A stretch of 33,472 nucleotides of DNA. Origin: Planctomycetota bacterium (GTDB lineage Bacteria > Planctomycetota > Planctomycetia > Pirellulales > Pirellulaceae). The stretch is taken from the NCBI GenBank assembly GCA_046074805.1, contig JBJTOW010000358.1, forward strand, positions 1-33,472, written 5' to 3'. The position numbers and the translations under genes were made by a program. The notes beneath the pieces are model-generated. The model was not told the origin of the DNA. It did no database searches and saw nothing but the letters and a program-made list of their open reading frames with translations. Of the stretch, positions 1,811-30,553 are shown in pieces (position 1 is the stretch's first letter; each line of letters starts with the position of its first letter).

Positions 1811-4042
1811 TCAGCGGCCGCCGAGTTCGCTGACCCGAGTGAACTCCTGTCCCGTCACAACGCCATCGCCGTCCGCGTCCAGGAATCGAAAATGTCGCTC
1901 GAGGAGCGCAGGGTTGTTCCGGTAGCGAGCCACCTCATTGAAAGCCTGTCGCGCCTCGTCCAACGTCATCCGGCCATCGCGGTTCGCGTCCGCCTTCGCG
2001 AACCGCGAGTCGACCGCCACACCTCGAAACGCCTCCGCGATTCGCTGACCGACCGTTTTGGGCTTATCGTCCGCGTCAGTCCCGCCCGCCGCTAGTCCGC
2101 CAGCCTTCAATCTGCCAGCCTTCGATCCGGATGCCGCGTTTCCCGAATCGTTCTTGGGTTCCTCGCGGCTTGATGCGTCAGCCGACGAAGGTTTGCCCGG
2201 AACGTAATACTCAATGTAGCCCAGCAACATTTCGTCAAACGTTTGCGGGCCCCATCGCACGGTTCGCTCGGGATCCGGATTCGCCGGATTGCCGGCACTG
2301 TTGTCGAACCAGCCCGTGACTTGTAAAGTCGTCCCAGCGGTCGCCGCGTAGGGCTCGGCGAGCCGGTACTGCAACTGCCAATTGAAGTCGTAGCGAGGTA
2401 TATCCAGCAGAACTTCCACTTGGCCGTCGGACCGTGTCGCTTCATAGCGAAACGCCTTTCCTCGCAGATGCATATGCGGCATGAACGCCAACACGATCGC
2501 GTCGCGCGGCACGCGCAGCGATGCCTGTTCCGCGTGATCCGACGCGCCCGGCGGAATCCGTATCCGGGTGTTCGCGATGCCAACCGTTTCCACCACATGC
2601 CGCGGTGGATCCTTTGTGAACCGTAGGGCGAGTTCCGTTCGATCCTCGGTCGCTTGGCCATTGGGCGTGTAATGCATTTGAAAAAGAAGCCTTGATCCCT
2701 TCGGCAGCTTCTTCGCGAATCCCGTCGGATAAACCTGGCTACTATTCCCTGGAACATACGCGGCGAAAAAGCCACTTCGCTCGTCGGGCTCCGCCCCACC
2801 CCGCCGACCATTTCCGTCCAGCACGAACACCAACACGTGATGCACGACCTCGCGCCGCGTTGGTCGAACCTCGAAAGCTTCCACCCATCGATCGTCCGTC
2901 AAGCCAGTCTCGACCACCAGATGCTGATACGGCATGGTGCCCTCGGCCTTGATGGGAACCGACTTCGGCAAACGCACCACCAAGTCCGGCTTGCCGATTT
3001 TCCATTCGCCGGGAACAGCCAGGGGGATAGGAGCGTCCGCCGAGTCCCCTTCCGGCAATCCATGGCCCAGCCAGGCGAGCAAGTCGTCGCGGTCGGCGGC
3101 GGAGAGCGAACGGTCGTTCAGCCAGCGAGCGGCGCCATGACTCTCCCGGGCGAACCATGGCGGCATACGCTGTTGTTGCACCACTTGCTGGATCATCGCT
3201 TTGTGAGCCGACACCTGTTCCAGCGTTTCCAAAGCGAAGGGGGCCAATCCTCCCGTCCGATGGCACTCGACGCAGTTTCTTTGCAAGATCCGCGAGATGC
3301 GATTGTGGTATGTCCATGGCCCCGGTGATCGCCACGTTTCCTGGTTCAACTCAAGAACACAACCGGGAGCGGCCGTCGCCTCAATCGCAGGCCGAACACC
3401 GCCGAGCATCGCTTCCAGCGCGTCGGCCAAGTACCGATTACGGGCCGAGTCCCGGGCGTAGTCGAGTCCGTATTGGTCGTCCACGGCGCCGTGATAGCGA
3501 ACTGTCCCCGCGGCATCGATCAGCACCGTATCGGTCGTCGTCGCCGCGCCCACCAATTGAGCGATTGCGGGCGATTTGTCCCGAACACATGACAGCCGCG
3601 GTGCGACGGCCGCCAGCAGTTCACGCAGCGGATCGACCGCTTTCCCAGGCAAGGACGTCTTGTTGTCCAGCGGCGGTTCAGCGGCCGCCACCAACAAAAA
3701 GCGCACCCCGCGCTGTTCATAGGTGTCGGCCAACCGGGCCAGCACGGGCAAATACTTGCGGCTGAGCGGACAGGTCGAACTGGTCATCGCCACGACGATA
3801 CCTTTGGCGGGAGGCCCAAAGCGGCCTTCGTCGCCTTCGAGATCCCGCCAAGCTGGCAGCACAACTCTACGCCCAACGCCATGATCGCCGGGCCGCAGAA
3901 TTTTAGGCGTCGCCGCAAGATCGGCCGCGTCGCTGGGGCTTGGCGCGCTACCAGCCAACGCCACGCCGACCGTCAAAATCCAAGACGCCATCGAGCGCGA
4001 AGCACATATTCGACGAAAATCGATCTTGGATTGGCAACGCAT
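1811..4042 (-). CDS. Secreted multidomain protein: thioredoxin-fold (redoxin) domain, Planctomycete-type c-haem module, copper type II ascorbate-dependent-monooxygenase-like (PHM/DBH-like) domain, and a C-terminal EF-hand pair
   Basis: ORF 1811..4324 is trimmed to the ATG at 4042 (MRCQSKIDFRRICASRSMASWILTVGVALAG, signal-like), because the longer form overlaps the upstream gene. Motifs seen: redoxin-like TSSTCPLSRKYLPVLARL; CVECH; HHVLVF, QMHYTP, PHMHLRG and FDEMLLGY (candidate Cu ligands); and two canonical EF-hand loops, DANRDGRMTLDE and DADGDGVVTGQE. Confidence 0.8.
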   Translation of the reverse strand: MRCQSKIDFRRICASRSMASWILTVGVALAGSAPSPSDAADLAATPKILRPGDHGVGRRVVLPAWRDLEGDEGRFGPPAKGIVVAMTSSTCPLSRKYLPVLARLADTYEQRGVRFLLVAAAEPPLDNKTSLPGKAVDPLRELLAAVAPRLSCVRDKSPAIAQLVGAATTTDTVLIDAAGTVRYHGAVDDQYGLDYARDSARNRYLADALEAMLGGVRPAIEATAAPGCVLELNQETWRSPGPWTYHNRISRILQRNCVECHRTGGLAPFALETLEQVSAHKAMIQQVVQQQRMPPWFARESHGAARWLNDRSLSAADRDDLLAWLGHGLPEGDSADAPIPLAVPGEWKIGKPDLVVRLPKSVPIKAEGTMPYQHLVVETGLTDDRWVEAFEVRPTRREVVHHVLVFVLDGNGRRGGAEPDERSGFFAAYVPGNSSQVYPTGFAKKLPKGSRLLFQMHYTPNGQATEDRTELALRFTKDPPRHVVETVGIANTRIRIPPGASDHAEQASLRVPRDAIVLAFMPHMHLRGKAFRYEATRSDGQVEVLLDIPRYDFNWQLQYRLAEPYAATAGTTLQVTGWFDNSAGNPANPDPERTVRWGPQTFDEMLLGYIEYYVPGKPSSADASSREEPKNDSGNAASGSKAGRLKAGGLAAGGTDADDKPKTVGQRIAEAFRGVAVDSRFAKADANRDGRMTLDEARQAFNEVARYRNNPALLERHFRFLDADGDGVVTGQEFTRVSELGGR

Positions 4043-4050
4043 AATCGACC

Positions 4051-4659
4051 TTATCGTGGCGAATAGGGGAACTCGGGAAGTTGCTGTAGGTAGGCGGGGC
4101 AAACGCCCTTCAGCCAGATGTAGTTGTGATCGATTCGTTTCGCTGAAACAACGCGGACGAAGATGAGGCCAAAGATGGCGAACGCCAATGTTCCGAAAAT
4201 GCCTCCGAATATTAGAGGCAAGAAGGCGGGAGACGTGTTCGCGTCGAATTGGAACGCGGCGATAAACGCGGCGACCGAGCCCAATCCACCGAGCCACGAA
4301 ACCCAGATCACCGTTCGCCGCCAAGCTAAGCCTTCAGGGCCCAAGCCAATTTCGATCTTTGCCCGATGACCCAGGATGTTCGCGAGCACAACGTAAATAA
4401 TAAGGTTCAGTAGCAGACTCAAGTAAATCGCGGGGTGATGCCAAAAAAGCTTTTGCGTTAACCGAGTGGAGGTTGGCTCATTGGTCTTCACGCAGCGATC
4501 TGGCAGCCGCGCCATCCGATGCATCACCAGCAAGTTGCCTTGCCGCCAAACACCACCCTCGTACGGGTTGCCAGCGGAATTGGGGAAAACGGCACCGGCC
4601 GGATTCAACGGTGCCTGATAGGGATTGGCGTTAGCGTCACTGAACGGGTTTTGCGACAT
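4051..4659 (-). CDS. Hypothetical membrane protein (Pro/Asn-rich N-terminus, 3-4 TM helices)
   Basis: ORF track, 202 aa. N-terminus MSQNPFSDANANPYQAPLNPAG, followed by hydrophobic helices (AIYLSLLLNLIIYVVLANIL, VIWVSWLGGLGSVAAFIAAF, FLPLIFGGIFGTLAFAIFGLIFV). It packs tightly between neighbours, with gaps of 52 and 8 nt. Confidence 0.6.
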   Translation of the reverse strand: MSQNPFSDANANPYQAPLNPAGAVFPNSAGNPYEGGVWRQGNLLVMHRMARLPDRCVKTNEPTSTRLTQKLFWHHPAIYLSLLLNLIIYVVLANILGHRAKIEIGLGPEGLAWRRTVIWVSWLGGLGSVAAFIAAFQFDANTSPAFLPLIFGGIFGTLAFAIFGLIFVRVVSAKRIDHNYIWLKGVCPAYLQQLPEFPYSPR

Positions 4660-4711
4660 TGTCTAGGAGATCCTGACCTCGAGGTGCGTGCGAAAAGATA
4701 GGGCGGGCCTG

Positions 4712-6061
4712 CTACGAAATCGCCTCGCGAATCAACGGAGCGTCTTCGACGATCAACTTCACGGGGCGATTCGCTGGCGTGTGGATTACTGTGTCCGGAT
4801 CGATTCCCAGGAGGTGGTAAAGCGTGCGGCCGAAGCTCTCGACCTTGTGGAATCCCGAGACAACTTGCTCACCCTTGGCGTCCGTCGCCCCAACCACACA
4901 ACCACGATTGAAGCCGCCCCCGGCAGCCAATACAAACTGCGCGTAGTCCCAATGGTCGCGGCCAGCGCCGGATTCTTTCGGTTTATCAATCTTCGGCTTT
5001 CTCCCCATCTCTCCCAACGCCAACACCAAAGTCGAATCAAGCAACCCGCGTTCGTCCAGATCGTCGAGCAAGGACGCCAAACCAAGGTCGAACATCGGTA
5101 TCTGCTGCCGGCCGGCGGTGAAGTTATCGCCATGCCAATCCCAATATCCAAGGTTGAAGTGAACCACTGGCACTCCCGCCTCGATCAATCGCCGCGCCAG
5201 CAGGAAATGCAGGGGATCGCCAATCGGGTAACGCGCCTTGGCCGGTTTGTTCCGCGTGAACCGCTCGACGGACGCCGTCGGCTCCTTCGAGAGATCGAGC
5301 GCTTCCCTGAGCTTTGGGGAACGCAACAGATTGAAGGCCGTGTGCTGGTATTGATCCAAGCCGGCGATTTGCGCGTCGCGGGCATCGTCGCGTCGCAGGC
5401 GTTGGTCGAGCAACCGTAGCAGATTGACGTTCCGCTCTAGCACCGGGATGTCCAATTGGGGCGTGAGCATCCGCGTCACCGCGTCTTTATCCTTGAGCGG
5501 TTGCATCACGAACGGCGCGTGAGCCGACCCGAGAAAACTACGGGCCAAAGCGTTGTGCGTATGCACATCGATTTCGTCAAGCACGACGAAGGAAGGCAAG
5601 TCCACCGGCCCCGGCCGCAGGCGATTGACCACGCTTCCGACCATCGGGTATTCGTCGCTTCCCGTCGTCAGCCGTGGGTTGCCTGTCAGCCAATACAGTG
5701 GAGCTTGACTGTGATCGCCCGGTTTATTCAGCGTCGTCACCGATCGAATCACGGTGTACTTGTCGGCTCGTTTCGCCAACTCGGGCAAAAGTTCTCCGAC
5801 CTGTAATCCCGGCACCTTGCTGGCGATGGGCTGGAAGACGCCGCGGTATTCTTCCGACGCGTCCGGCTTCATGTCGAACATATCCAAGTGCGGCGGGCCT
5901 CCGCCGAGCCAGCACACGATCATCCGTTTCGCTTGCCCTCGGCGGCCAACGGCGGCGTCGGAGCCGGAAGTAGCGGCGCCGGCGTTCGCGCGGAGCAGGT
6001 CCATCGTTCCGATACCGCACAGTCCCAGACCGCCGATGCTGAGGAAATCGCGTCGTCGCAT
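4712..6061 (-). CDS. DUF1501 family protein (sulfatase/alkaline-phosphatase-like fold) with a Tat signal
   Basis: Twin-arginine start MRRRDFLSIGGLGLCG. Family-typical motifs WLGGGPPHLDMFDMKPDA and GRDHWDYAQF. It sits immediately downstream of a DUF1549/DUF1553 gene, the usual pairing. Confidence 0.9.
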   Translation of the reverse strand: MRRRDFLSIGGLGLCGIGTMDLLRANAGAATSGSDAAVGRRGQAKRMIVCWLGGGPPHLDMFDMKPDASEEYRGVFQPIASKVPGLQVGELLPELAKRADKYTVIRSVTTLNKPGDHSQAPLYWLTGNPRLTTGSDEYPMVGSVVNRLRPGPVDLPSFVVLDEIDVHTHNALARSFLGSAHAPFVMQPLKDKDAVTRMLTPQLDIPVLERNVNLLRLLDQRLRRDDARDAQIAGLDQYQHTAFNLLRSPKLREALDLSKEPTASVERFTRNKPAKARYPIGDPLHFLLARRLIEAGVPVVHFNLGYWDWHGDNFTAGRQQIPMFDLGLASLLDDLDERGLLDSTLVLALGEMGRKPKIDKPKESGAGRDHWDYAQFVLAAGGGFNRGCVVGATDAKGEQVVSGFHKVESFGRTLYHLLGIDPDTVIHTPANRPVKLIVEDAPLIREAIS

Positions 6062-6079
6062 ACCGCCCTGCCCTTCCGA

Positions 6080-8869
6080 TTAATGCTGCAAAACGAATTC
6101 CCGCGTGTTCAACAATCCCCACAATACACCGTGCCAACCATCGGCTGGTGTGGTGGCCGCTGCAACGAACTCCAAGCACCCAGTCCGCTCTTCCGCCGAC
6201 GGAAACCGGCTCAACACAGCCAAAAACAGCTCGTCGAGCCGTTCGCTGTTGTCCAAGTCGACAGCCAGCAATCGAGCCACTCGTCCGTCCGCCGCCTTTA
6301 TCTTTTCCCAAATACGCGGATGGTTGGCCAACGCCAGCAACTGAAAAATGGAACTTTCCCCGTCCCGCTCACAATCGCACTGCACGGCCGCGTTCCGCGC
6401 GGGACGTCCAAACATTTCCAACGCTTGCGAAACAAACATGTTGCGGGGGGCGAAGGGAACTTGAACGGTCGTCGACCTTGGCGGCCAGTGGTGGTATTTC
6501 ATGTCCATGTCTTCATCGACGCCAGTGGCCGCGTTCAGCGCATCCAGCAAGACTTCCGCCGGTAATCGCCGCAAGGGAAAGGCGGCGTAATAGGAAGCGT
6601 CCGCGACCGTCGCCGAGGCTTGTCGATACGCCTGGCTGCCCGCGATCCGGCGATGCAGCACGCGCAAGTCATAGCCACTGGCGACGAATCGCTCGCACAG
6701 ATCACGCAGCAGAACTTCATGCGAGGCCGCGTTGAAGGCGGACAGATTGTCCGGTGGATCGATGAGCCCACGGCCGAAGTAGTGGGCCCAGACTCGATTG
6801 ACGATCGCGCGAACGAAAAATGGGTTGTCGCGACGCCGCATCCAGTTCACAACCGCCGCCCGCGGGTCTTCCATCGCCGCAACTTCTGTTGGCTGGGATT
6901 CGCCAAGCAAGCGGAAAACGGACGACTCGCGAGTTCCCAATGTGCTCGAAACTTTCGCTGGTTTTCCACTGGGTAACAGTCGGCATTCGGCCTGAAGCAG
7001 ACGCCGGGCCGCCTCGGGCAGGTACTTCGCCCGCCGTTCGATCTCCGCCGTTTCCACGCGATAAGCTTCCGCCCGATCCCAAATCTCCTGGGCGGCTTTA
7101 AGCTTGTTACGGGCGGCGTTTAATTCGGCCGAGTCTTTTGGAATGGTGTCGGCCGTGGTTTCTGGCTGACTGGTTTCTGGCTGGCTGGTTCCTGGGCCAT
7201 TTTCCGGCTTGCCCCGCGCGGCTTTGGCGGCCGCCTCGAGCCGAACAATGTCCCGTTTGGCCTGGTCGATTGCCGCTCTCGCCTTCTTACCATCGTCCTC
7301 CAAACGCTTCCCGTCGCCTTCCCGGCGCTGCTTGACTTGGCTTTCGAGCCGTTTCGCTTCCTCATTCCAACGTTTGAAGTGCGAGGCTGCGTCCTCGAAC
7401 CGTTTTTCGTTCTCTCCCTGGAAGCCAACCGTTCGCACCCGCATGAAAAAATTGGCGAAGTCGAGTAGATCGTCTTGCTGCCACAGATCATGCGGATGCC
7501 GATGGCACTGTGCGCATTCCAGACGCAAGCCGAGAAACGCATGGGCAACCTGCATCGCGCCCGACACGCCGTCCGATCCACGACGCTGCCAGTACAAATC
7601 AAGCGTTCGGCGATTGGCGTACAGATCCAAGTCGGGACGCCCCGGCGCGTATCCCCGGAACATCGCCTCCACCTCGTCAGCGTAAGCGTCCATGGATCGC
7701 CCCTCGCGGCTCGTCGCCAACAAAATGCGTTCCACAAGTTGGTCATAAGGCGTGTTTTCCCGCAGCCTTGCCCTCAGCCAAGCTTGCATTCGCGGGGCGT
7801 CGTGCTCCTTGGACAACGCGTCGGCATAGACGCCAAAATCGGCCGCTTTGAGCAAATCGCAGAATTTCATCGCCCACAGATCGGCATGAGCGGGACTCGC
7901 CAACTGGCGGTCTATCCAACGCTGATGGCGATCAGGCAGAGTATCGGCGAGGAAGTCTCGGGCCTCCTCCGGCGTCGGCAAAGCGCCCGTCAAGTCAAGC
8001 GTGGCTCGCCGCAGGAAAGTCGCGTCATCGCATTCAGGGGATGGCCGCAGATTCAAACCACGGAGTTTTTCCACCAGATGCACATCGAGCACGTCGCGGG
8101 GCTTCGTCTCGGGAAAAGGCGAAGCGTCGTCGTACGGCACTAGCACCGTGGCGATGGCTGGTTGGGCTCGATAGCGGACCATCAACCGACCTTCGCCCGG
8201 CGCGAGCACTTCGACTGACCCGCTCGAGTGGACGGAAGCCACGGACGGAGTCAACGATTGGAAGGAACAGTAGCCGGTTACATCCTCGCGGGAGCCATCC
8301 TGAAATTCCGCTTCCACCCGCAATTCATAGCGTTCCGATACCCGGCCAGTCCTCTGGGCTGGGGAAACCCGCAATTGGATGACACGTGATGCGTCGCGGT
8401 CGTCCCGTGGCATTCCGGCCGCAATCCACTTACGCAGCGACTCGTAGTCAGCGTCACCACGAACGAGTCGTCGTCCTCCGCCATGCCCCGCCAAGCCTAA
8501 CGCCTTTCGCAGGAGCAAACTGTCTGGCGCCGCGAAGGGGTCGACACGTCGTCCAAAATCGCCACGCACCAGTTGGTGCCAATCGGCGTCAGGGTCGGCG
8601 CTGAACATCGTCAGCCGAAAGCCCGCCTTACCCTGGACGGCGCCATGGCAGGTTCCGCCATTGCAACCAAGTTTCCCGAACAAAGCGACAACGTGCCGTT
8701 GGAACGAGACGGAGGGAATGGATGGGTTTGGCTGAGCCCTCGCGACATCGCCAAGGAAAACCACAAAACTCGCAACAAGCGTCGCCAACGCCGTCGCCCG
8801 AAGCCAGGAGAAAGACCACGTTAGCGGCCCACGAATCGACAAGCTTTCCAGACAACGGCGGAGATTCAT
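6080..8869 (-). CDS. DUF1549/DUF1553 (PSCyt2/PSD1) protein with an N-terminal CX4CH motif and a central coiled-coil insert
   Basis: 929 aa. N-terminal signal-like segment. GKLGCNGGTCHGAVQGKAGFRL (CX4CH). DUF1549-type LRRATLDLTGALPTPEE. Central CAQCHRHPHDLWQQDDLLDFANFF. C-terminal DUF1553-type region ending NTREFVLQH. Confidence 0.9.
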   Translation of the reverse strand: MNLRRCLESLSIRGPLTWSFSWLRATALATLVASFVVFLGDVARAQPNPSIPSVSFQRHVVALFGKLGCNGGTCHGAVQGKAGFRLTMFSADPDADWHQLVRGDFGRRVDPFAAPDSLLLRKALGLAGHGGGRRLVRGDADYESLRKWIAAGMPRDDRDASRVIQLRVSPAQRTGRVSERYELRVEAEFQDGSREDVTGYCSFQSLTPSVASVHSSGSVEVLAPGEGRLMVRYRAQPAIATVLVPYDDASPFPETKPRDVLDVHLVEKLRGLNLRPSPECDDATFLRRATLDLTGALPTPEEARDFLADTLPDRHQRWIDRQLASPAHADLWAMKFCDLLKAADFGVYADALSKEHDAPRMQAWLRARLRENTPYDQLVERILLATSREGRSMDAYADEVEAMFRGYAPGRPDLDLYANRRTLDLYWQRRGSDGVSGAMQVAHAFLGLRLECAQCHRHPHDLWQQDDLLDFANFFMRVRTVGFQGENEKRFEDAASHFKRWNEEAKRLESQVKQRREGDGKRLEDDGKKARAAIDQAKRDIVRLEAAAKAARGKPENGPGTSQPETSQPETTADTIPKDSAELNAARNKLKAAQEIWDRAEAYRVETAEIERRAKYLPEAARRLLQAECRLLPSGKPAKVSSTLGTRESSVFRLLGESQPTEVAAMEDPRAAVVNWMRRRDNPFFVRAIVNRVWAHYFGRGLIDPPDNLSAFNAASHEVLLRDLCERFVASGYDLRVLHRRIAGSQAYRQASATVADASYYAAFPLRRLPAEVLLDALNAATGVDEDMDMKYHHWPPRSTTVQVPFAPRNMFVSQALEMFGRPARNAAVQCDCERDGESSIFQLLALANHPRIWEKIKAADGRVARLLAVDLDNSERLDELFLAVLSRFPSAEERTGCLEFVAAATTPADGWHGVLWGLLNTREFVLQH
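7156..7198 (-). repeat. In-frame 15-bp tandem repeat (about 2.9 units) encoding SQPET repeats inside the DUF1553 protein
   Basis: Plus strand: TGGTTTCTGGCTGAC (7156-7170), TGGTTTCTGGCTGGC (7171-7185), then a partial unit to 7198. The protein reads GTSQPETSQPETTA. Confidence 0.85.
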
Positions 8870-8878
8870 AGGCGCATT

Positions 8879-9403
8879 TCAAGAATCGAGCGTCGGGCTC
8901 CAGCGTGGCAGTCGCGACTGAGCGAGAACCGTCTCGAGAGGATCGGCAGATTCATTGCCTGAACTAGCCTTAGGAGCGACGACGCCCGTGTTCGACGCCG
9001 TTTTACGCGCTCTCCGGACCAGCCAGTAGAAATAGGTGCTCAATCCGCCAAGCACCAGGAACGGCAAGGACAGCATCAAAATGATGCTCCAGAAGTAGCC
9101 CTGAACGATTCCCATGGCGGTCGGATCGTTTTGCGATAGCGAATCCTTGCAGTTCGGGCACGCCAACAGCGGGTCTACCAAACCGAACAAAAACACCCCG
9201 AACGCCAACATCAAGACAAAATCCCACCAACGAATCGCCGGCCTAGGAGCCAACACTCCATGCGCCCACACTCCATGCGCCCACACTCCAAACATCCGCG
9301 GTTCACTCGCCGGTTGATCTTGGGTAGTTCGGCTGTCAGCGACTCGACAACAAGCCTCCGCAGTGCGAATCGTCGATGGTACGCGAAGCGTCGTTCGATT
9401 CAT
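8879..9403 (-). CDS. Small membrane protein with a periplasm-facing CPNC motif (hypothetical)
   Basis: C-terminal part of ORF 8879..9781, whose upstream part overlaps the DUF420 gene in another frame. Candidate starts are the ATG at 9403 (MNRTTL) or at 9295 (MFGVWAHG). There are two TM helices (WWDFVLMLAFGVFLFGLV, YFWSIILMLSLPFLVLGGLSTYFYWL) flanking LLACPNCKDSL. Confidence 0.5.
   Translation of the reverse strand: MNRTTLRVPSTIRTAEACCRVADSRTTQDQPASEPRMFGVWAHGVWAHGVLAPRPAIRWWDFVLMLAFGVFLFGLVDPLLACPNCKDSLSQNDPTAMGIVQGYFWSIILMLSLPFLVLGGLSTYFYWLVRRARKTASNTGVVAPKASSGNESADPLETVLAQSRLPRWSPTLDS
9254..9290 (-). repeat. 15-bp tandem duplication (2.5 units) encoding GVWAH-GVWAH
   Basis: Plus strand: CACTCCATGCGCCCA at 9254-9268 and 9269-9283, then a partial unit to 9290. 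Confidence 0.85.
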
Positions 9404-9411
9404 GGGGAGAT

Positions 9412-9858
9412 CTACCTCGGGGGAAACAACTGGTACAGCATAATGTATACGACAACGCCCGTGACCGAAACGTACAACCAGATTGGAAAGGTCCAGCGCG
9501 CCAGGCGACGATGCGCCGACCGTAGCCCCTTCAATCCAAGGTAAATCGTCGCCACCGCCAAAATGGGCACTGCCATAGCCAGCAGAATATGCGAGATCAA
9601 GATGGCGAAGTAAAAATAGCGGACCAGCGCCGGGGGGTAGGCTGGAAACGGAGTGCTCGCACCATTCCGCACGCCGAAGTGATAGAGCAAGTAGCTGCCA
9701 AGAAACAGTGTGGAAACCGCGAACGCCGACATCATGACCTGGCGATGAGCCGTCTCGCGCCGCTGGCGAATCAACCACCATCCCACCAGAAGTAAAACGG
9801 TCGCCAGGGCGTTCAACGAAGCGTTAAGATGCGGAAGAATGTACTGCAATTTGTCCAT
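9412..9858 (-). CDS. DUF420 family membrane protein (CtaM-like oxidase accessory protein)
   Basis: ORF 9412..9897 trimmed to the ATG at 9858 (MDKLQYILPHLNASLNALATVLLLVGWWLI...). Four TM helices, and an HRRLARWTFPIWLYVSVTGVVVY tail typical of DUF420. It lies next to SCO and cox genes. Confidence 0.75.
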   Translation of the reverse strand: MDKLQYILPHLNASLNALATVLLLVGWWLIRQRRETAHRQVMMSAFAVSTLFLGSYLLYHFGVRNGASTPFPAYPPALVRYFYFAILISHILLAMAVPILAVATIYLGLKGLRSAHRRLARWTFPIWLYVSVTGVVVYIMLYQLFPPR

Positions 9859-9930: not shown

Positions 9931-10002
9931 CCCCTTATTCGCCCTCCCCAACACGAACCCCTGAAGCCCACTGCCCACTGCCCCACTGCCCACTGCCCCA
10001 CT
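9931..10002 (-). repeat. Dense G-tract array on the sense (minus) strand, ending in a regular GGG(G)CAGT repeat; candidate RNA/DNA G-quadruplex region
   Basis: The plus strand shows nine runs of three or more C between 9931 and 9999. The last five form CCC(C)ACTG units (9967-10002) that abut or overlap the SCO stop codon (10001-10003). Three further C-runs lie in 9861-9889. Confidence 0.85.
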
Positions 10003-10714
10003 ATTCTTCCGCCGCTGCTTGGGCCGCTTCTCGCGCCGCTGCCGCCGCGGCGCCCTTCTTTTTCTCCGCGTCGGCCGCCTTGCCAGCCGCTTCGGACGTG
10101 GTTTCCGCGAGCAGTTCATCCAACAACAATCGCATTTTGGCGAGTTCCTCGGTTTTCTTCCAATCGAACTTGCCGCGTTGCTGGCCCGCACGGTCGTAAA
10201 CGAGGAACGTTTCGATGTGCGTTTGTTCGTCGAGCGCCACTCGGTAGACTTCGGCCCCAATCCGTCGCAAATACTTCATTTCGCCCGTCAGAAACAACCA
10301 CTGCTTCGGATCGGCTTGGAACTTTTTCGCGTAGGCGGACAAAGCGGTCGGCGAATCGCGTTTGGGATCGCAGGTAATACTGAGGAATTTCACTCCTCGT
10401 TGAGCGTAGGTGCTCTGGATCGTTTCCAATTGGCGATTCTGCCGCTCGCATGGCCCCGGACATGAAGCGAAAAAGAAACTGACAACGTGGACTTCCCCCG
10501 CCAATTCCTTGGAATCGAAATCGCGGCCGCTACGCTCGGTGAGCTTGTAGTCGGAGATCCAGTCTGTTTGCGCCCAGGCGGGGTCGACTTTCGCGCCGAC
10601 GACCTGCGCTTCCGCTGGCCGCCGCGACGACTTCAGGTACGGAGCACTCACCAGGGCCAGCACACCGGCCGCGACCAATACTCCCGCTAAGCCAATCGCC
10701 GCCGTCCTTTTCAT
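10001..10714 (-). CDS. SCO1/SenC family copper chaperone / thiol-disulfide oxidoreductase with an Ala/Lys/Glu-rich C-terminal tail
   Basis: ORF 10001..10876 trimmed to the ATG at 10714 (MKRTAAIGLAGVLVAAGVLALV, a membrane anchor). Thioredoxin-fold with the CxxxC motif FFFASCPGPCERQN and the downstream conserved His in EQTHIETFLVYD. Its start overlaps the permease stop as ATGA (10711-10714). Confidence 0.85.
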   Translation of the reverse strand: MKRTAAIGLAGVLVAAGVLALVSAPYLKSSRRPAEAQVVGAKVDPAWAQTDWISDYKLTERSGRDFDSKELAGEVHVVSFFFASCPGPCERQNRQLETIQSTYAQRGVKFLSITCDPKRDSPTALSAYAKKFQADPKQWLFLTGEMKYLRRIGAEVYRVALDEQTHIETFLVYDRAGQQRGKFDWKKTEELAKMRLLLDELLAETTSEAAGKAADAEKKKGAAAAAAREAAQAAAEE

Positions 10715-11529
10715 TGCCAATCTCCGGCCGTCCGTGTTTTCCCGACGCCAATCGCGAGCAACGTCAACGCCGCCGCGAACACAACCGCTACTAGCCAGCA
10801 CCAAGGCTGGGCGGGCTGAAAGTATCCTAGCGGCAAGTCGACGCCCGACCATGCCCGCCGCGTGCCAGCCACGCAATAAGTGAGTGGATTAATCCGCATG
10901 ATGGCGTGTAAGGCGATCTGCGACCAGGAAGCCTGCTCGTTCCAGGCCGGCATTGGGAAGAATGCCCCGGATAGCAACCACATCGGCATCAAAAGCAAGT
11001 TCATGACCGCATGGAAACCTTGCGTCGAATCAAGCCTCCAGGCGAGGACGAATCCCAGCCCTGTCATGCCCACCGCCGTCAACGCCAACAGACCAAGCAT
11101 TTGCGTCCAATCGAGCCAATTCGACGGCGCGTCGATCAACGCGCCCAGAGCGAGCATGAACGACGCCTGCAACATCGCAATGGCGGATGCGCCCAGGAGC
11201 TTCCCCAGAACCATCGACCAGCGGCCAGCTGGACCCACCAACACCGACTGAAGAAATCCCTCGCGCCTGTCCTCGATGATCGAGATGGTCGAGAAGATCG
11301 CCGTGAAGAGCAAGGTGAGCATCACCGTGCCTGGGAAGTAGTACTCGAGAAACGTTTGGTCCGAATCCGGCGTCATTCGAAACGACTGCCGCAATCCCGC
11401 GCCGAACAACAACCAGAACAAGAGTGGCTGGCCAATGGCCCCGATTACGCGATGCCGCTGGCGAAAAAAACGCACTAACTCGCGCCACGCCAGCATTCGA
11501 ACCACCAGCCAGGGACGAACCGGCGTCAT
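10711..11529 (-). CDS. ABC-2 type transporter permease
   Basis: 272 aa with about 6 TM helices and ABC-2-like organisation. ATGA overlaps with both neighbours (11526-11529 and 10711-10714). Confidence 0.8.
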   Translation of the reverse strand: MTPVRPWLVVRMLAWRELVRFFRQRHRVIGAIGQPLLFWLLFGAGLRQSFRMTPDSDQTFLEYYFPGTVMLTLLFTAIFSTISIIEDRREGFLQSVLVGPAGRWSMVLGKLLGASAIAMLQASFMLALGALIDAPSNWLDWTQMLGLLALTAVGMTGLGFVLAWRLDSTQGFHAVMNLLLMPMWLLSGAFFPMPAWNEQASWSQIALHAIMRINPLTYCVAGTRRAWSGVDLPLGYFQPAQPWCWLVAVVFAAALTLLAIGVGKTRTAGDWQ

Positions 11530-12470
11530 GAGCCGACTCCTTCCCGCGCTAAACGGTGGCCCGTTAGGGCCAGAAAGACATCTTCCAGTGTCGGCTTACC
11601 GACCGTGATGGATCGGACATCCGTTGGAAATCGCTCGAGAATCCTGCCAACCCACACGCTGCCCGCAGCGGCCTCGAATCGAACACCACCTTCGACGGCA
11701 CGGACGATCAATTGAAATTCTTCCCGCAATCGCTCGGCCATACTTTTCGAATCGCGACACTTCAGTTCCACCGTGTCGCCTCCTAAAGTGGCTCGCAAGG
11801 CATCGGGTGAATCGAGTGCCACCAACCGGCCCTCGTGCAACAACGCCAAGCGGTCGGCACGCTCGGCCTCCTCGAGCAAATGCGTGGTGAAAACGATCGT
11901 CACTCCAGCAGTTGCTTGCAGCCGACGTAAGCCTTCCCAGAGGTCGACGCGTGCTCCCGGATCGAGTCCGGTGCTCGGTTCGTCCAGCAAAAGCAAAGAT
12001 GGCCTGTGGAGTACCGCCTTCGCTAACTCAACTCGCCGACGTAAACCGCCGGAAAGAGTTTCCACACGGTCGCCAGCACGTTCAGCCAACCCGGCATCCG
12101 CCAAGGCCCGCTCACGCGCCTCACGCAGCGCTGGCCCCGACATTCCGTACAACGCACCCGCGCACTCGATGTTCTCAGCGACCGAAAGTTTTCTATCTAA
12201 ACTGGGTGACTGGAAGACAACACCCAGCCGGCGACGTATCTCGGGAACCTGCCGCGACAAATCGAATCCCAGTAAAGACACCGAGCCGGATTGGAGCGGG
12301 ACGAGGGTCGAAAGCAAGCGAAACAAAGTCGACTTGCCGCCGCCATTAGGTCCTAAAAATCCAAAAATCTCGCCCGCTCGGACAGAGAAATCAAGCGAGT
12401 CCAGAGCAAGCCGCTCGCCATAGCGGAATGAGACGCCGCGCTGCTCAAAAGCCGACGCAGCATCGCTCAT
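11526..12470 (-). CDS. ABC transporter ATP-binding protein (DrrA/NatA/NosF-like, with a C-terminal accessory domain)
   Basis: Walker A GPNGGGKST, signature LSGGLRRR, Walker B LLLLDEPSTGLD, H-loop TTHLLEEA. About 90 extra C-terminal residues. ATGA overlap with the upstream ctaF-like gene (12467-12470). Confidence 0.9.
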   Translation of the reverse strand: MSDAASAFEQRGVSFRYGERLALDSLDFSVRAGEIFGFLGPNGGGKSTLFRLLSTLVPLQSGSVSLLGFDLSRQVPEIRRRLGVVFQSPSLDRKLSVAENIECAGALYGMSGPALREARERALADAGLAERAGDRVETLSGGLRRRVELAKAVLHRPSLLLLDEPSTGLDPGARVDLWEGLRRLQATAGVTIVFTTHLLEEAERADRLALLHEGRLVALDSPDALRATLGGDTVELKCRDSKSMAERLREEFQLIVRAVEGGVRFEAAAGSVWVGRILERFPTDVRSITVGKPTLEDVFLALTGHRLAREGVGS

Positions 12471-12988
12471 GTGGAATCGGCCTTCGCGGCCGCATCGCCC
12501 ACGCCCGCGGGAGTCGCGCCTTTCGAGGCTTCTTCCGAGGTCGCTTCACCGTTGCCTGCGGACGCCCCGCCCGTTGAATCGCCAGAAGCTTCCGCTGTGG
12601 GCTCCACCTCGGCATCTTCGTAATCCGAAGCGTACAGCGACCGTTCCTCCGCGTAGTATCGAGTTCGCTGACCGACATCAGGGACCAACGCGACAACTAA
12701 AAACACCGACATCAGCGACGCGGGGATCGTCAATACGTACTTCCAATTCGCTTCCCAAATCAAGTGCATGAAGAAGCAGATGACAAGCATCGCCTTCGTG
12801 CACGAGACAGCCATCATGAACACCCAGCCGACCACCGGCGTCTCCTGGAAGGGCCAGAATCGCGAATACGTGAAGAACGACATGGTGGTGAGCCCGCATA
12901 ACGCGAGAAACACCATCATGTATTTACCTACTCCACCATGCGAATGCTCACCGTGCGAATGCTCACTGTGACCGCTGGAACCTGTCAT
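12467..12988 (-). CDS. ctaF: Cytochrome c oxidase subunit IV (prokaryotic COX4/CyoD-like) with a hydrophilic C-terminal extension
   Basis: His-rich N-terminus (HSEHSHGEHSHGGVGKY) followed by three TM helices (MMVFLALCGLTTMSFF, VGWVFMMAVSCTKAMLVICFFMHL, YVLTIPASLMSVFLVVALV), as in the CyoD/CtaF family. Located directly after the subunit III gene. Confidence 0.7.
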   Translation of the reverse strand: MTGSSGHSEHSHGEHSHGGVGKYMMVFLALCGLTTMSFFTYSRFWPFQETPVVGWVFMMAVSCTKAMLVICFFMHLIWEANWKYVLTIPASLMSVFLVVALVPDVGQRTRYYAEERSLYASDYEDAEVEPTAEASGDSTGGASAGNGEATSEEASKGATPAGVGDAAAKADST

Positions 12989-20210: not shown

Positions 20211-20283
20211 AGACTTAACCTGTGTAGAAAAATGAGTATGCAGTCGACCGAGAGAGCAGTAAACGTGTTTCCAACCAAGCCTG

Positions 20284-21201
20284 CTACTGGAACAGCGTTC
20301 CGGCGACCTGGACCTCAAGCTTCGTCGTTTCCCCGGGTGTCAACGTCCGCTTGAAGCGGCCCTTGCCCCATTTCTCGGATGTTCCGTTCACCGTCACGTC
20401 CTGCAGGAAATTGGTTTTTTCTTGCCAAACGCGAAACTCAAGCTCAACGCCCGCCGGCAGGTTTGGAATTTCGAACGATCCGTCAGGCTTCGTCACCGCG
20501 AAGTACGAATTTTTACGGGTGATCATGTAGGCTTTCATCCAGGGATGGATGGCACAAGCTACCGGGAACGGTTGGTCTTCCTCCGCCTTCGGCTGGTAAA
20601 GGCCAGCCGCGTTGGACGGAATTGTTTGGTCGTACGCTGGGTTCTTCTTTGGCTTCAGACTCGTGTTGTGGCCAACAGGGTCGCTGTTCTTAATCCGGAT
20701 TGGCTGGGACGATTGAATCGCAAGCAACCGGGTTAGAAAGACGCATTCCTTTTGGTCGAATATCACCTCGTCAGCCTTGCCGGGCTTGGCGTCCGGATGC
20801 GTCCATGGCTCATCGTCTGGCAGTTTCTGAGAAACGAACACGAGGACGTTACCGATGCCACCTTCGGGCGAAATTACAAACTCTTGACTGAGGACCTGTT
20901 TGCCGCCTGGAGCACATACTCCTTGGTCTTTGTCGACCGACAGCGTTGCTGCTGACGGTCGATCGCCAGCTATCCTGAAAACGCCAGACAAGGTCGCCCA
21001 CCCTGTCGGCATGGCCGAAGGGGTCGTTGCAGAATCCGTACTCGCTCCTTCGCCGCCACCGGCTTCGAGCGCCGTTCGAAGCGATTTGGCCATCGCCAAG
21101 TCTGGCGACACATTGACAGGCAATCTGGGGCCACAGCCGTTAGCGGATGCAATGACGGAACCCGTCGCCAGCACCGCCATCGAAATCCAAGATTTTTTCA
21201 T
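20284..21201 (-). CDS. Cupredoxin-like (amicyanin-type loop) protein with a C-terminal beta-sandwich, probable lipoprotein; paralogue 1
   Basis: ORF 20284..21240 trimmed to the ATG at 21201 (MKKSWISMAVLATGSVIASANGCG). Candidate type-1 Cu ligands are DPVGHNT (His) and CAIHPWM (Cys-x2-His-x2-Met, as in the amicyanin CTPHPFM loop). Then FAVTKPDGSFEIPNLPAGVELEFRVWQE. Confidence 0.7.
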   Translation of the reverse strand: MKKSWISMAVLATGSVIASANGCGPRLPVNVSPDLAMAKSLRTALEAGGGEGASTDSATTPSAMPTGWATLSGVFRIAGDRPSAATLSVDKDQGVCAPGGKQVLSQEFVISPEGGIGNVLVFVSQKLPDDEPWTHPDAKPGKADEVIFDQKECVFLTRLLAIQSSQPIRIKNSDPVGHNTSLKPKKNPAYDQTIPSNAAGLYQPKAEEDQPFPVACAIHPWMKAYMITRKNSYFAVTKPDGSFEIPNLPAGVELEFRVWQEKTNFLQDVTVNGTSEKWGKGRFKRTLTPGETTKLEVQVAGTLFQ

Positions 21202-21291: not shown

Positions 21292-22089
21292 CTACTTCGA
21301 CAGTGTTTTCAGTGCGACCTTGAACGTACCCAAGTTGTTGGCACCTGCCTTGATCGTGAAATCCGCTCTTCCCTTGCTCCATTTTACCGTTTTACCGGCA
21401 CCATCCTTAACTTCCTGGATGAAACCAGCCCCTTCGTGCCAAATCTGGAATTGCCACTCTCCGGCTGGCAGCTTCGGAATCGTGACCGATCCGCTCGCAT
21501 CGCTTACCGCCGCGTAGGGGTTGTCGCGCACCAGCAACTTAGACTGCATCCATGGGTGTATCGAGCAGCTGACCGATGCCGGAAGACGTTCTTCTTTCTT
21601 GAACGATTGCTTCAGGAGTCCGCCGGCTGGAATGATTGGATTCACAGGCGGATTGTCCAAGACGTCGATTTTGGTGTTGTGGCCGATCGGATCGGAGTTT
21701 TTCAGGACAAGCGTTTGTGCGGTCCAGAGAACGGCGACGTGCGGTTCAAAACGGCAGCCTTTATTGTCTAGGACGACTTCGGTGCCCTTCATCTTTTCCA
21801 GGTCGGGGTGAATCGCCACTTTTTTACCGACCGCAGGCCGCAAATAGACGAAGACGTTGCCGATTCCGCCGCCCGGGCCAAATGCCAGGGTTTCGTCTAC
21901 CAGCTTTTCCTTACCACAGACTTGCTGGTCCTTGTTAATGGTGAGCGGCTTGGAGGCTGGTGCCGCTCCGTCGAGCACGAATTTTAGTGATAGGTCGCCC
22001 CAGGTTTGAGCGTTAGCATTCGCCGCATTCACAATGGCACATATGGCTACGACGAAAAAAACAATTTTACGCATCGGTTTTAACTCCAC
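21292..22089 (-). CDS. Cupredoxin-like (amicyanin-type loop) secreted protein; paralogue 2
   Basis: Signal peptide MRKIVFFVVAICAIVNAANANA; the start may be the ATG at 22074 rather than 22089. DPIGHNT and CSIHPWM motifs. AAVSDASGSVTIPKLPAGEWQFQIWHE is colinear with paralogue 1. Confidence 0.7.
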   Translation of the reverse strand: MELKPMRKIVFFVVAICAIVNAANANAQTWGDLSLKFVLDGAAPASKPLTINKDQQVCGKEKLVDETLAFGPGGGIGNVFVYLRPAVGKKVAIHPDLEKMKGTEVVLDNKGCRFEPHVAVLWTAQTLVLKNSDPIGHNTKIDVLDNPPVNPIIPAGGLLKQSFKKEERLPASVSCSIHPWMQSKLLVRDNPYAAVSDASGSVTIPKLPAGEWQFQIWHEGAGFIQEVKDGAGKTVKWSKGRADFTIKAGANNLGTFKVALKTLSK

Positions 22090-26979: not shown

Positions 26980-27010
26980 GGACGTTTCCTCCCGGTGAAG
27001 CCGTGTCCTA

Positions 27011-28384: not shown

Positions 28385-28399
28385 GAGTGTGAATCCCGT

Positions 28400-29176
28400 T
28401 TACAACGGACCGCTGATACCGCCGTCCTTGCGCACACGCCAGAAGTGGATGGCGATGAGGAGCGAGGCGGCCAGTGGAATGGCGATGCAGTGCAAAATGT
28501 AGAACCGGTTCAAGGTTTCCTCGCCCACGAACCGGGCGCCAAGCAAACCAAAGCGGGCGTCCGAGGCTGCGGTGATCATGTCGATCCCGTCGACGGTCAA
28601 CAACGCCGCACCGGGGCCCTCGTGACCGAGGACGGGATGGGCTCTTGCCATGTTGGAACCAACGGTGATAGCCCAAATGGCCAACTGATCCCAAGGAAGC
28701 AGATATCCCGTGAATGAGAGTAGCAGGGTTAACAGGAGCAAAATGACGCCGATCACCCAGTTGAATTCTCGAGGCGGCTTGTAACTTCCTGTGAGAAACA
28801 CTCGATACATGTGAAGCCATACGGTGATCACCATGGCGTGCGCGCCCCACCGGTGAACTTCGCGGAGAATACCCAGCGAAGCAACGTCGCGCAACGCCAG
28901 GATGTCCGTATAGGCCCATTCGAGCGTAGGACGGTAATAGAACATCAGCAGCACGCCGGTGACTGTTTCCACCAGGAAGAGGAAAAACGTCACACCGCCC
29001 ATGCACCAAGTGTAGCTGAGTGCGATTCCTTGCTTTTTGATCGATACCGGGTGGAGATGAAGGAAAAAATTCGTGAGCATCACCACGATCCGATTTCGCC
29101 GGTCAACCGGCATCGGATGACGGAAAATGCTTTTCCAGATCTGGGACTCACGAATGACTTCGCTGAGCGATGGCAT
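28400..29176 (-). CDS. Cytochrome b6-like protein (cytochrome b N-terminal four-helix domain)
   Basis: [69 protein letters not shown] closely parallels the b6 helix B-D region, including the haem-ligand His residues. The second His pair region is [23 protein letters not shown]. Confidence 0.9.
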
Positions 29177-29371
29177 AGAAGGCTTCCAAGTGGGTCGCAG
29201 CGGCGGTTGTCATCGTGTCACGGTGCTTTGTCGCCTCTTGGAGACGCCGCATTCGTATTAGATGCCAGTTCCTGTTTTCCGCTTGCTATCCAAAGATCTC
29301 TGCGATGGACGGTGAACGCTGTATATTTGTTTTCCGGTCGTTAAGCGAAGCTTATGCCGCTCCGGCGATCA

Positions 29372-30553
29372 CTATGTTGGCACGAAAGACGATGTGTCCT
29401 TCCACTGCCCTGTTTCCTCGTGGAAGACACGACTCTTGTCAACTTCCAACTGGCCATCATCCGAAACCTTGATCGCGTAGCGTTCAAGCGGTCGTGGAGC
29501 CGGTCCCTCGAAGTTGACGCCGTCCTTATAAAAACCGCTTCCATGGCATGGGCATTTGAATTTCTGTTCTGCTTCAAGCCAATTAGGAGTGCACCCCAGG
29601 TGCGTGCAAACAGTCTTCAGTGCGAAGATCTGGGATTGGCCTTCGTACTCGTGCTTGACCACCCATACGCCGAACTGGGCTTTGAAACGTTCATCAACTT
29701 GGCCTGGCGCCAGGGTGTCGGGGAACCCGACTTTGAACTTCGTCGGCGGTTCGGTGAGTATGTTGGGGAAGAAGAATCGGGCGAGGCCGAGAACCCACAA
29801 GAGGTGAGTCACCGCCAGCGACGTGAAACCGAGTGCGAGAGAGGATCCGGCGATCATCGACGACACGGAGGCGAAAAAGCCGCGACGCGATTCCTCTTTT
29901 TTGCCTTTGGCGGCAGGTTTAGTCTGGGCATACTCGGGCTTCGCCGGCATCGGCGGCGCTTCGAGCTTTTTCTTCGCGGGAGCGGTTTCGATGCCTTTTT
30001 CCTTGGCTTCCGCTTTTGACACGGGGCCCGGCTTGGCCGCACCAACTCCCCGTGCCGCCGCGAGGATACTCGCCGTGTCCAGCGCGGCTGGTTTCGCGGG
30101 GGTGGCTCCTCCTTCGGCCTTCACGGCTGCAGGCTTGGTGGATGCTTTAGCGATGGCCGGCTTCGCCGCCGCAGTCGGGGACTCTGTAGTTTTGGTGGTG
30201 GTAGGCTCCGAGGCCACTACATCGGCAGCGGGTACGCCCGCAGTCGCCTCGCTCCCGCCCGCTTTAGCAGCCTTGGCCGCTCGGGCTGCCGCCAGAATAT
30301 CCGCTGTGCTCATGGGCCCTGGCTTGGGCTTGGATACGCTCGCCGTCCCTGCGGGTGTCGGGGTAGATGCCGGACCAGCAGGGGCAGACGGGGCTGTTTC
30401 GGGCGAAGGCTCGCTGGCGGCCTTGGCAGGTGCTTCGGTCGTCGCCGCTGTGGGAGCGGCAGTCGTGGTGGCCGCCGGGGGCGCACCGCCCGCCTTGTTG
30501 GCCCGGGCCGCAGCGAGAATCTCGGCGACCGACATTTTCTTGTTGTCAGCCAT
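29372..30553 (-). CDS. Rieske [2Fe-2S] protein with an Ala/Pro/Thr/Lys-rich N-terminal extension of about 220 aa preceding an internal twin-arginine/TM anchor
   Basis: Rieske boxes CTHLGC and CPCHGS. SRRGFFASVSSMIAGSSLALGF (Tat-like motif plus helix) sits at residues about 222-245. The N-terminal region holds three copies of an xILAAAR motif. Confidence 0.9.
   Translation of the reverse strand: MADNKKMSVAEILAAARANKAGGAPPAATTTAAPTAATTEAPAKAASEPSPETAPSAPAGPASTPTPAGTASVSKPKPGPMSTADILAAARAAKAAKAGGSEATAGVPAADVVASEPTTTKTTESPTAAAKPAIAKASTKPAAVKAEGGATPAKPAALDTASILAAARGVGAAKPGPVSKAEAKEKGIETAPAKKKLEAPPMPAKPEYAQTKPAAKGKKEESRRGFFASVSSMIAGSSLALGFTSLAVTHLLWVLGLARFFFPNILTEPPTKFKVGFPDTLAPGQVDERFKAQFGVWVVKHEYEGQSQIFALKTVCTHLGCTPNWLEAEQKFKCPCHGSGFYKDGVNFEGPAPRPLERYAIKVSDDGQLEVDKSRVFHEETGQWKDTSSFVPT

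Follow-up and report, generated by a model that had tools for sequence, protein, structure and literature searches.

The colinearity of genes for quinol oxidoreductases and for terminal oxidases is already known, as in actinobacteria, where the qcr genes adjoin the cta genes. In planctomycetes, clusters that join alternative complex III (ACIII) to a haem-copper oxidase have been interpreted as a compact quinol-to-oxygen chain (PMC6995999, PMC4013037). Split cytochromes b are also known, and Blastopirellula marina and Pirellula staleyi were included among such cases (Baymann et al. 2012, PMC3509893). So is the APWY clade of Rieske/cytochrome b complexes, for which a WCMGG haem-ci motif was described (Kao & Hunte 2014, PMC4122944); none of its complexes had been characterised at the time of that study, which suggested that they operate in reverse. 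We analysed the whole of contig JBJTOW010000358.1 (33.5 kb, hereafter the window), from a Pirellulales-type planctomycete, which carries on its minus strand an array of 22 genes, numbered g1 to g22 in the order of transcription (Table 1). An earlier description made from the letters alone (the sequence-only reading) had taken the array as one respirasome-like, co-regulated unit. We propose instead, with a probability of about 0.72, that the window holds an 18-gene aerobic respiratory supercluster (g1-g18), carrying a putative menaquinol-to-O2 chain, and that two unrelated pairs of genes (g19-g20 and g21-g22) stand directly downstream of it in a narrow clade.

Comparison with relatives supports the block g1-g18 (8879-30553) as a co-inherited, lineage-typical aerobic respiratory block. 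The relatives were found by an alignment scan with g7, the dihaem cytochrome c, using one genome per GTDB species. At least 564 species have a relative of g7; we took the best 80 loci, each with a flank of up to 10 kb, and searched them by tblastn with all 22 proteins of the window (loci are labelled L below). Of these 80 loci, 69 show the detected genes in a strictly unbroken, colinear run on a single strand, from g1 to g17 or g18 within the limits of the flank or the contig. Both bc-type and ctaC/ctaD genes are present in 59 of the 80, and of the 58 loci whose sequence extends more than 6 kb upstream of g7, 54 have the bc module there, the other four being without it. The block is near-universal among the sampled relatives, as expected of a housekeeping chain, and is common to two cultured organisms, Blastopirellula marina DSM 3645 (L047) and Anatilimnocola sp. 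NA78 (L067). Hence, the synteny comparison that the sequence-only reading had set as its own test comes out in its favour for g1-g18: the adjacency of the modules is not confined to this genome, and the donor complex, the candidate carriers, the oxidase, haem A synthesis and copper handling are indeed colinear here. Some clusters are variants. In one (L046, 5571-9722), three cupredoxin paralogues stand in tandem and the bc module is missing upstream, and in three others (L066, L073 and L075) the dihaem gene is directly followed by ctaA/ctaB, with no detectable ctaC/ctaD homologue. L037 is listed among the variants too.

Within the window, an open reading frame (ORF) map and a scripted check using the start codons of the earlier description gave 22 uninterrupted minus-strand ORFs in 1811-30553, with a coding fraction of 97%. 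So many same-strand genes at this density are far beyond random orientation. In the order of transcription, the 21 junctions measure 195, 15, 31, 30, 90, 73, 15, -8, 37, 51, 10, 13, -4, -4, -4, 142, 8, 9, 18, 52 and 8 nt. ATGA overlaps join ctaF to the ABC ATPase gene (12467-12470), the ATPase to the permease gene (11526-11529) and the permease to the SCO gene (10711-10714), and ctaC and ctaD share the 8 nt ATGACTAG (18078-18085). The gene count, the junction lengths and all of these overlaps were thus reproduced exactly. Most of the gene labels stand as well, since Pfam and NCBIfam confirm the identities from Rieske to DUF420, PSCyt2+PSD1, DUF1501 and the Redoxin/Cytochrome_CBB3/Cu2_monoox_C/EF-hand protein. 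Three of them need qualification: DUF420 can be refined to CtaM, the protein labelled DUF1553 does contain PSD1 and additionally carries DUF1549/PSCyt2, and the label "cupredoxin" derives from motifs.

Table 1. Genes of the array in the window, in the order of transcription, with the evidence for each assignment (aa, amino acids; TM, transmembrane; AF2, AlphaFold2).
Gene	Product	Coordinates	Strand	Evidence
g1	Rieske [2Fe-2S] protein	29372-30553	-	Pfam Rieske, 38 bits
g2	Split cytochrome b6-type subunit, N-terminal half	28400-29176	-	Pfam Cytochrome_B, 135 bits
g3	Enlarged subunit-IV-like membrane protein, 457 aa	27011-28384	-	Pfam Cytochrom_B_C, 21.9 bits (weak)
g4	Octahaem c-type cytochrome, 1619 aa	22120-26979	-	8 CxxCH; several cytochrome c Pfam/NCBIfam matches
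g5	Secreted putative type-1 copper (cupredoxin-like) protein	21292-22089	-	Invariant ligand set
g6	Putative type-1 copper protein, probable lipoprotein	20284-21201	-	Paralogue of g5, 36% identity
g7	Dihaem cytochrome c, probable lipoprotein (AGC lipobox)	18939-20210	-	Pfam Cytochrom_C x2; 2 CxxCH
g8	CtaC, oxidase subunit II	18078-18923	-	Pfam COX2 + COX2_TM
g9	CtaD, haem-copper oxidase subunit I	16280-18085	-	Pfam COX1, 499.7 bits
g10	CtaA, haem A synthase	15220-16242	-	Pfam COX15-CtaA
g11	CtaB, haem O synthase, UbiA family	14239-15168	-	Pfam UbiA, 161.7 bits
g12	CtaE, subunit III	13002-14228	-	Pfam COX3 in two stretches; NCBIfam CtaE/CyoC/QoxC
g13	CtaF, prokaryotic subunit IV	12467-12988	-	Pfam COX4_pro
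g14-g15	ABC ATPase + ABC-2 permease, DrrAB-like exporter	10711-12470	-	Pfam + NCBIfam
g16	SCO1/SenC copper chaperone, CPGPC motif	10001-10714	-	Pfam SCO1-SenC
g17	DUF420 = CtaM, haem-copper oxidase assembly factor	9412-9858	-	Pfam DUF420, 146 bits, full length
g18	Small two-TM membrane protein, CPNC motif	8879-9403	-	No family match
g19-g20	DUF1549/DUF1553 (PSCyt2+PSD1) protein + DUF1501 protein	4712-8869 (g19, 6080-8869; g20, 4712-6061)	-	Pfam
g21-g22	3-TM membrane protein + secreted multidomain protein	1811-4659 (g22, 1811-4042)	-	Pfam; AF2 model

The first four genes are predicted to encode a b6f-like Rieske/cytochrome b complex of the APWY clade, an assignment that we make because the APWY motif of g3 and the WCMGG motif of g2 are both conserved in their orthologues. 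The g2 protein has two His-x13/14-His haem ligand pairs (HRWGAH...LH and LH...IH) and the WCMGG (CxGG) haem-ci motif, which is kept in 46/46 orthologues. The enlarged g3 protein, with about eight hydrophobic segments, carries the Qo motif APWY in the context KAPWYF, kept in 51 of 52 orthologues; it also matches the NCBIfam models ExtQ and cytb6_f_IV, both under the cut-off. Both cluster-binding boxes of the Rieske protein are present (CTHLGC and, as box II, CPCHGSGF), and its SGF tail is kept in 37 of 38 orthologues. The g4 protein, with a single N-terminal transmembrane anchor and eight CxxCH motifs that are kept in 50 of 52 orthologues, is presumed to be the c-type subunit of this complex.

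Two features of the bc-type proteins deserve mention in their own right. The Rieske protein has an Ala/Pro/Lys-rich N-terminal extension of about 225 residues (1-225) before its twin-arginine motif SRRGFFAS, and such a long cytoplasmic extension before a twin-arginine translocation (Tat) signal-anchor is unusual. It includes three S-x-A-[ED]-[IM]-L-A-A-A-R repeats, and the orthologue of Blastopirellula marina (L047, 2-964) has the same three. In addition, a His-rich stretch, HFLHKHGHSHGGHG, lies inside the octahaem cytochrome (residues ~1050-1065) and may be metal-binding.

Between this module and the oxidase genes are three genes for candidate electron carriers. The paralogues g5 and g6 share the ligand pattern His ... 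Cys-x2-His-x2-Met: in g5, which has a C-terminal beta-rich extension, H132, C170, H173 and M176 are 99-100% invariant (n=75 sequences), and in g6 the residues H178, C216, H219 and M222 are 100% invariant (n=66), with the lipobox Cys conserved in 80%. Neither protein has a match in Pfam, NCBIfam or the PDB sequences. Their alignment by hhalign to amicyanin pairs all four ligands with H53, C92, H95 and M98. By this ligand set they would be type-1 copper proteins, with a putative cupredoxin fold. The third candidate, the dihaem cytochrome g7, stands directly before the oxidase genes. It has more than 4,200 homologues, from Pirellulales/Planctomycetota wherever the source is named, and its G30 and C31 are invariant in the alignment.

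The subunits encoded by g8, g9, g12 and g13 are predicted to form an A-family, aa3-type haem-copper oxidase with a CuA site, whose motif C-x3-C-x3-H-x2-M is read in CtaC as CAELCGWGHYKM. CtaC has no CxxCH, i.e., no fused cytochrome c domain, and the oxidase should therefore need an external electron donor. Beyond the oxidase subunits and the genes for haem A synthesis, the block continues into assembly functions. The g17 protein consists of a four-transmembrane DUF420 domain and its gene adjoins SCO in 40 loci. DUF420 corresponds to CtaM, which is needed for assembling aa3-type oxidases and was recently tied to copper export (PMC4958251, PMC13344008); fusions of Sco and DUF420 have been noted in planctomycetes (PMC13344008). 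The last gene of the block, g18, matches no Pfam or NCBIfam family, and tblastn places its homologues directly 3' of DUF420 in several metagenome loci and in no fewer than 17 loci from genomes.

Some of these genes have further features. CtaE has a hydrophilic, charged insert of about 220 aa between transmembrane helices (residues ~135-340), and its gene appears as two separate tblastn segments in many related loci, which suggests that the insert is variable. His-rich stretches, including SGHSEHSHGEHSHGG, occur at the N-termini of CtaD (~18030-18085), CtaE (~14180-14228) and CtaF (~12940-12988) and may be metal-binding. In g18, a 15-nt tandem repeat (9249-9290) is translated into repeats of GVWAH in the protein's N-terminal part. 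Close relatives have shorter homologues (97-132 aa, versus 174 aa here), so that this part may be variable or the true start may lie later.

In the electron path that we propose, menaquinol would be oxidised at the Qo site of the b6f-like complex of the APWY clade, in which a split cytochrome b that carries the haem-ci Cys and an enlarged subunit IV would be accompanied by a membrane-anchored octahaem cytochrome c replacing cytochrome f/c1. Electrons would then pass to periplasmic or tethered carriers, namely the secreted and the lipoprotein type-1 copper proteins and the dihaem lipoprotein, and from these to the CuA site of the aa3-type oxidase (CtaC/D/E/F), which would reduce O2. The direction of this flow and the carrier used are those that we infer; the genes, their motifs and their order are as given above. 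Haem A would be made by CtaA and CtaB and copper supplied by SCO and CtaM/DUF420. The ABC-2 exporter and the CPNC (CxxC) membrane protein may contribute to cofactor supply and are plausible accessory factors.

Could the block be transcribed as a whole? The tight, translationally coupled junctions and the lack of terminators fit co-transcription over long stretches: in scans, none of the 21 gaps contained a terminator-like site, and both promoter- and terminator-like counts were at the level of shuffled sequence. Alternatively, the bc module, the carriers, the cta genes and the assembly genes could be transcribed independently, as neighbours kept side by side by selection for co-inheritance or co-assembly, and not as one operon or a physical respirasome. 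A single mRNA of 21.7 kb or 28.7 kb would be unusually long, gaps of 195, 90, 73 and 142 nt are present, and modules can drop out, as the bc module does in 4 loci and the ABC pair g14-g15 in 7 of the 80, where it is missing from an otherwise colinear cluster and thus behaves as an optional module. The gap lengths also differ among relatives: between SCO and DUF420 there are 142 nt in the window versus 6 or -4 nt elsewhere. Yet many junctions are of 15 nt or less or overlap, the promoter-like matches are at chance level and the gaps hold no conserved sequence, since the larger ones, when aligned with those of the six closest loci, proved to share neither sequence nor length. For these reasons we consider a set of independent units rather unlikely. 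The sequence-only reading had suggested internal promoters in the larger gaps, giving as example the hexamers TTTACT-N17-CATACT upstream of the dihaem gene. This example turns out to be weak: the hexamers match 8/12 consensus positions, under the threshold of our scan, lie one base off the coordinates 20234-20262 and are not conserved in L001, a relative with 87% protein identity.

The gaps themselves yielded little else. The 195-nt gap between g1 and g2 has no convincing small ORF, and no RNA family was matched in Rfam at the gathering threshold. The SCO-DUF420 gap holds a tandem repeat at 9966-10002 (GCCCACT, period 7/15, 2.4-4.6 copies) and looks like a recent expansion, because in relatives the two genes are 6 nt apart or overlap by 4 nt.

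A more specific proposal concerns the partnership of the two enzymes. In Pirellulales, the APWY complex with its octahaem subunit may serve the aa3 oxidase as its dedicated partner for menaquinol oxidation, wired to it by tethered type-1 copper proteins and the dihaem lipoprotein, possibly in a new architecture of III-IV supercomplex. The conserved synteny would be compatible with such a physical association. We put this forward tentatively, as a possibility below even odds; if it is true, the suggested reverse operation of APWY complexes would be overturned. The opposite arrangement would make the bc module a reverse-running branch: the octahaem cytochrome, the cupredoxins and the dihaem cytochrome c would collect electrons from a high-potential periplasmic donor and share them out between a downhill route, the aa3 oxidase, and an uphill route to menaquinone, the APWY complex, by analogy with the rus/petI systems of Acidithiobacillus ferrooxidans. 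Against it, the known Pirellula-like planctomycetes are organoheterotrophs. In its favour, the APWY Qo motif and WCMGG are conserved, APWY is linked to reverse operation in PMC4122944, and the rus operon (PMC8239418) is brought to mind by the presence of a cupredoxin, a dihaem c and aa3 together. We nevertheless rate this as very unlikely because the block is near-universal in a mostly aerobic clade (the described Pirellula-like planctomycetes are strict aerobes with few exceptions; PMC6995999), encodes by Pfam neither an outer-membrane cytochrome nor a dedicated substrate oxidase, and has a Rieske protein whose "SF" signature points to a moderate potential, compatible with menaquinol oxidation (PMC3509893).

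The array as a whole is composite: g19-g20 and g21-g22 are unrelated, independently conserved pairs, placed beside the block in a narrow clade only. We conclude this because g19-g22 are linked to it only in three contigs of close relatives (L081, L163 and L168), and their orthologues lie elsewhere in more distant ones. The full downstream order g17-g22 is seen only in these three contigs, at 76-90% identity (86% for g22 in L081; 76% for g19 in both L163 and L168). In STL-PLA36, the block is on contig 6 (L003) and the orthologous g19/g20 pair (62% identity) on contig 50, in an unrelated neighbourhood. Anatilimnocola NA78 has the block at 0.66 Mb and the g19/g20 pair at 7.35 Mb (about 6.7 Mb apart by record coordinates). 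The second pair behaves likewise: in STL-PLA34 the block is on contig 19 (L002), and a g21-like gene with a g22 orthologue (54%) is on contig 14, beside clpX; in JBIIHW (block on contig 1, L005) and JACKHM (block on contig 5, L018) the g22 homologues are in unrelated contexts on contigs 15 and 3, respectively. By locus, the g19/g20 orthologues away from the block are in L164, L165 and L169, and the g21-g22 pairs unlinked from it in L082, L166 and L167. Finally, a metagenome scan with the DUF420 alignment found homologues of g19-g22 after DUF420 in none of the 23 loci with at least 4 kb there (0/23).

These results change what can be said of the two pairs. The sequence-only reading had given the DUF1553/DUF1501 genes a respiratory, copper or haem context and had extended the unit to the copper-monooxygenase-like gene; neither claim is supported, since the linkage is limited to the same three contigs, is absent from 23/23 metagenome loci, and the pairs are found elsewhere, g22 orthologues in unrelated neighbourhoods included. 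It is accordingly quite improbable that all 22 genes form one co-regulated unit in which the DUF1549/1553, DUF1501 and PHM-like proteins act in respiration or in copper or haem handling: the same-strand junctions of 9, 18, 52 and 8 nt, the arrangement kept in the three contigs, and the copper/haem theme conceivable from one CxxCH each in g19 and g22 and the two-copper core of g22 are outweighed by the orthologous pairs placed elsewhere in STL-PLA34, STL-PLA36, JBIIHW and Anatilimnocola NA78, by the metagenome loci, and by the fact that the DUF1501 genes near two other oxidase clusters are only distant paralogues. This last point concerns L037 and L066, where a recurrent association of DUF1501 with oxidases could be suspected. 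We rejected it: the paralogues upstream of these oxidase clusters share only 29-35% identity, and one lies 5.6 kb from the cluster, across an opposite-strand ORF and with several genes between. The DUF1501 family is very large in these genomes, and we therefore judge the rare cases near oxidases compatible with chance. A tempting functional lead for the large DUF1553/DUF1501 families is thereby removed.

As for the pairs themselves, g19 has the domains DUF1549/Big_2/DUF1553 and a single CxxCH, and g20 a Tat signal. The g19 orthologue group is strongly conserved (56-62% identity, from Pirellulales to Gemmataceae and Zavarzinella), and a DUF1501 gene directly follows the g19 orthologue in L164, L165, L081, L163 and L168 (not in L169). 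Because of this conservation, with DUF1501 directly after in several loci, we regard g19-g20 as an autonomous two-gene unit. In the literature searched, no paper mentions DUF1553 together with DUF1501.

In the second pair, g21 encodes a membrane protein of about 200 aa and g22 a succession of redoxin, mono-haem cytochrome c (one CxxCH), PHM/DBH-like two-copper core and EF-hand domains. The AF2 model of g22 has a mean predicted local distance difference test score (pLDDT) of 85.9. Foldseek matches it to peptidylglycine alpha-hydroxylating monooxygenase (PHM) over about 280 residues (E 8.5e-15, i.e., ~1e-14; target TM-score 0.64-0.69) and also to dopamine beta-hydroxylase (DBH), and its N-terminal part to thioredoxin-like folds. 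H384/H385, H440, H506/H508 and M588 are invariant in 117 homologues and reproduce the pattern of CuH (H,H,H) and CuM (H,H,M). The prediction that the core is a PHM/DBH-like copper monooxygenase is thus well supported by model and motif. The architecture of g22 belongs to a large family, with more than 2,300 matches, whose named members are from Planctomycetota and Verrucomicrobiota (Chthoniobacter and Roseimicrobium). The neighbourhoods of the family vary and include sulfatases, FG-GAP/ASPIC proteins and DUF1501.

The upstream boundary of the array is the divergent gene purD (31133-32497, plus strand), and its downstream boundary a likely convergent plus-strand ORF, followed by a minus-strand TPR gene. 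The ten longest plus-strand ORFs within the array have no Pfam match. Between the divergent Rieske and purD genes, the intergenic region (30554-31132, 580 bp) holds a 99-aa minus-strand ORF (30557-30856) without Pfam match, and 3' of the array there are short tandem repeats of 19 nt (x2.9) and 9 nt (x5.6), at 300-354 and 1708-1757.

Several points weigh against an 18-gene respiratory supercluster followed by two unrelated pairs, and our results should be interpreted with these in mind. The support consists of sequence and gene order. The 80 loci are the best-scoring relatives of one gene, and the synteny figures apply to these. In the case of the putative copper proteins, hhalign against amicyanin gave probabilities of only 61% (g5) and 18% (g6), and the AF2 model of g5, built from a two-sequence alignment (g5 and g6), has a pLDDT of 32. 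In the closest genome relatives (L003-L006) the 10-kb flanks end at g17/g18, so that what follows g18 there was deduced from the location of the orthologues. Finally, Kao & Hunte (PMC4122944) argue that complexes of the APWY type may run in reverse, opposite to the path proposed here.

In the literature searched, we found no description of the 18-gene arrangement or of its conservation, the treatments found being at the level of components. Gene order ties the APWY clade to cupredoxin-like proteins, a dihaem cytochrome c, an aa3 oxidase and genes for haem A and copper assembly in many Pirellulales, and this link would give the clade a concrete, testable role, that of the main aerobic menaquinol-to-oxygen chain. 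The role could be tested in culture, because Blastopirellula marina DSM 3645 and Anatilimnocola sp. NA78 carry the block.

How does the locus compare with known systems? The sequence-only reading had held that bc-type and oxidase genes are usually in separate operons. This was overstated, given the reported ACIII-oxidase clusters of planctomycetes (PMC6995999, PMC4013037). These clusters, with caa3 or aa3 oxidases, are alike in having a multihaem quinol:cytochrome c oxidoreductase colinear with a haem-copper oxidase, but ACIII is derived from the molybdopterin family, not from Rieske/cytochrome b, and the window has no ACIII genes. Another comparison is with the actinobacterial bcc-aa3 system (qcrCAB and cta, forming an obligate III2IV2 supercomplex; e.g., PMC4505504). 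There too, menaquinol-oxidising Rieske/b genes stand beside aa3 genes and a dihaem cytochrome c serves as the link, with no need for a classical soluble cytochrome c; the position of g7 between the enzyme modules recalls QcrC, which bridges bcc and aa3. The actinobacterial system differs in its unsplit cytochrome b with PDWY and in having its dihaem QcrC as a subunit of complex III, and it lacks an octahaem subunit and cupredoxins; genes for haem A or copper assembly are not part of its array. The rus operon of Acidithiobacillus ferrooxidans (cyc2-cyc1-orf-coxBACD-rus; PMC8239418) likewise brings a cupredoxin, a dihaem c and aa3 subunits together in one same-strand array, but its function is the oxidation of Fe(II) in an acidophile, it also contains an outer-membrane cytochrome, and the bc1 genes are left to separate pet operons.

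Parts of the locus also have their own counterparts. DUF420 adjoins SCO and oxidase genes as CtaM and Sco do in Bacillus and Staphylococcus (PMC4958251, PMC13344008); compared with the Sco-DUF420 fusions, the genes here are separate, with the CPNC membrane protein after them and the ABC-2 exporter before. The g22 protein shares with PHM and DBH the two-domain fold and the full pattern of CuH (HH + H) and CuM (HxH + M), and differs in being bacterial and secreted, with fused N-terminal thioredoxin-like and mono-haem c domains and C-terminal EF-hands. The closest relatives of the bc module are the APWY-clade complexes themselves (PMC4122944, PMC3509893), which have the same split cytochrome b, WCMGG, APWY and associated Rieske protein, the cluster of B. 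marina (L047) belonging to the same family. In their accessible parts, these papers treat the phylogeny and motifs of cytochrome b and Rieske proteins and do not describe colinearity with cupredoxins, dihaem c, aa3 and biogenesis genes. The direction that they suggest is the reverse one; our synteny comparison points instead to a role coupled to the oxidase.

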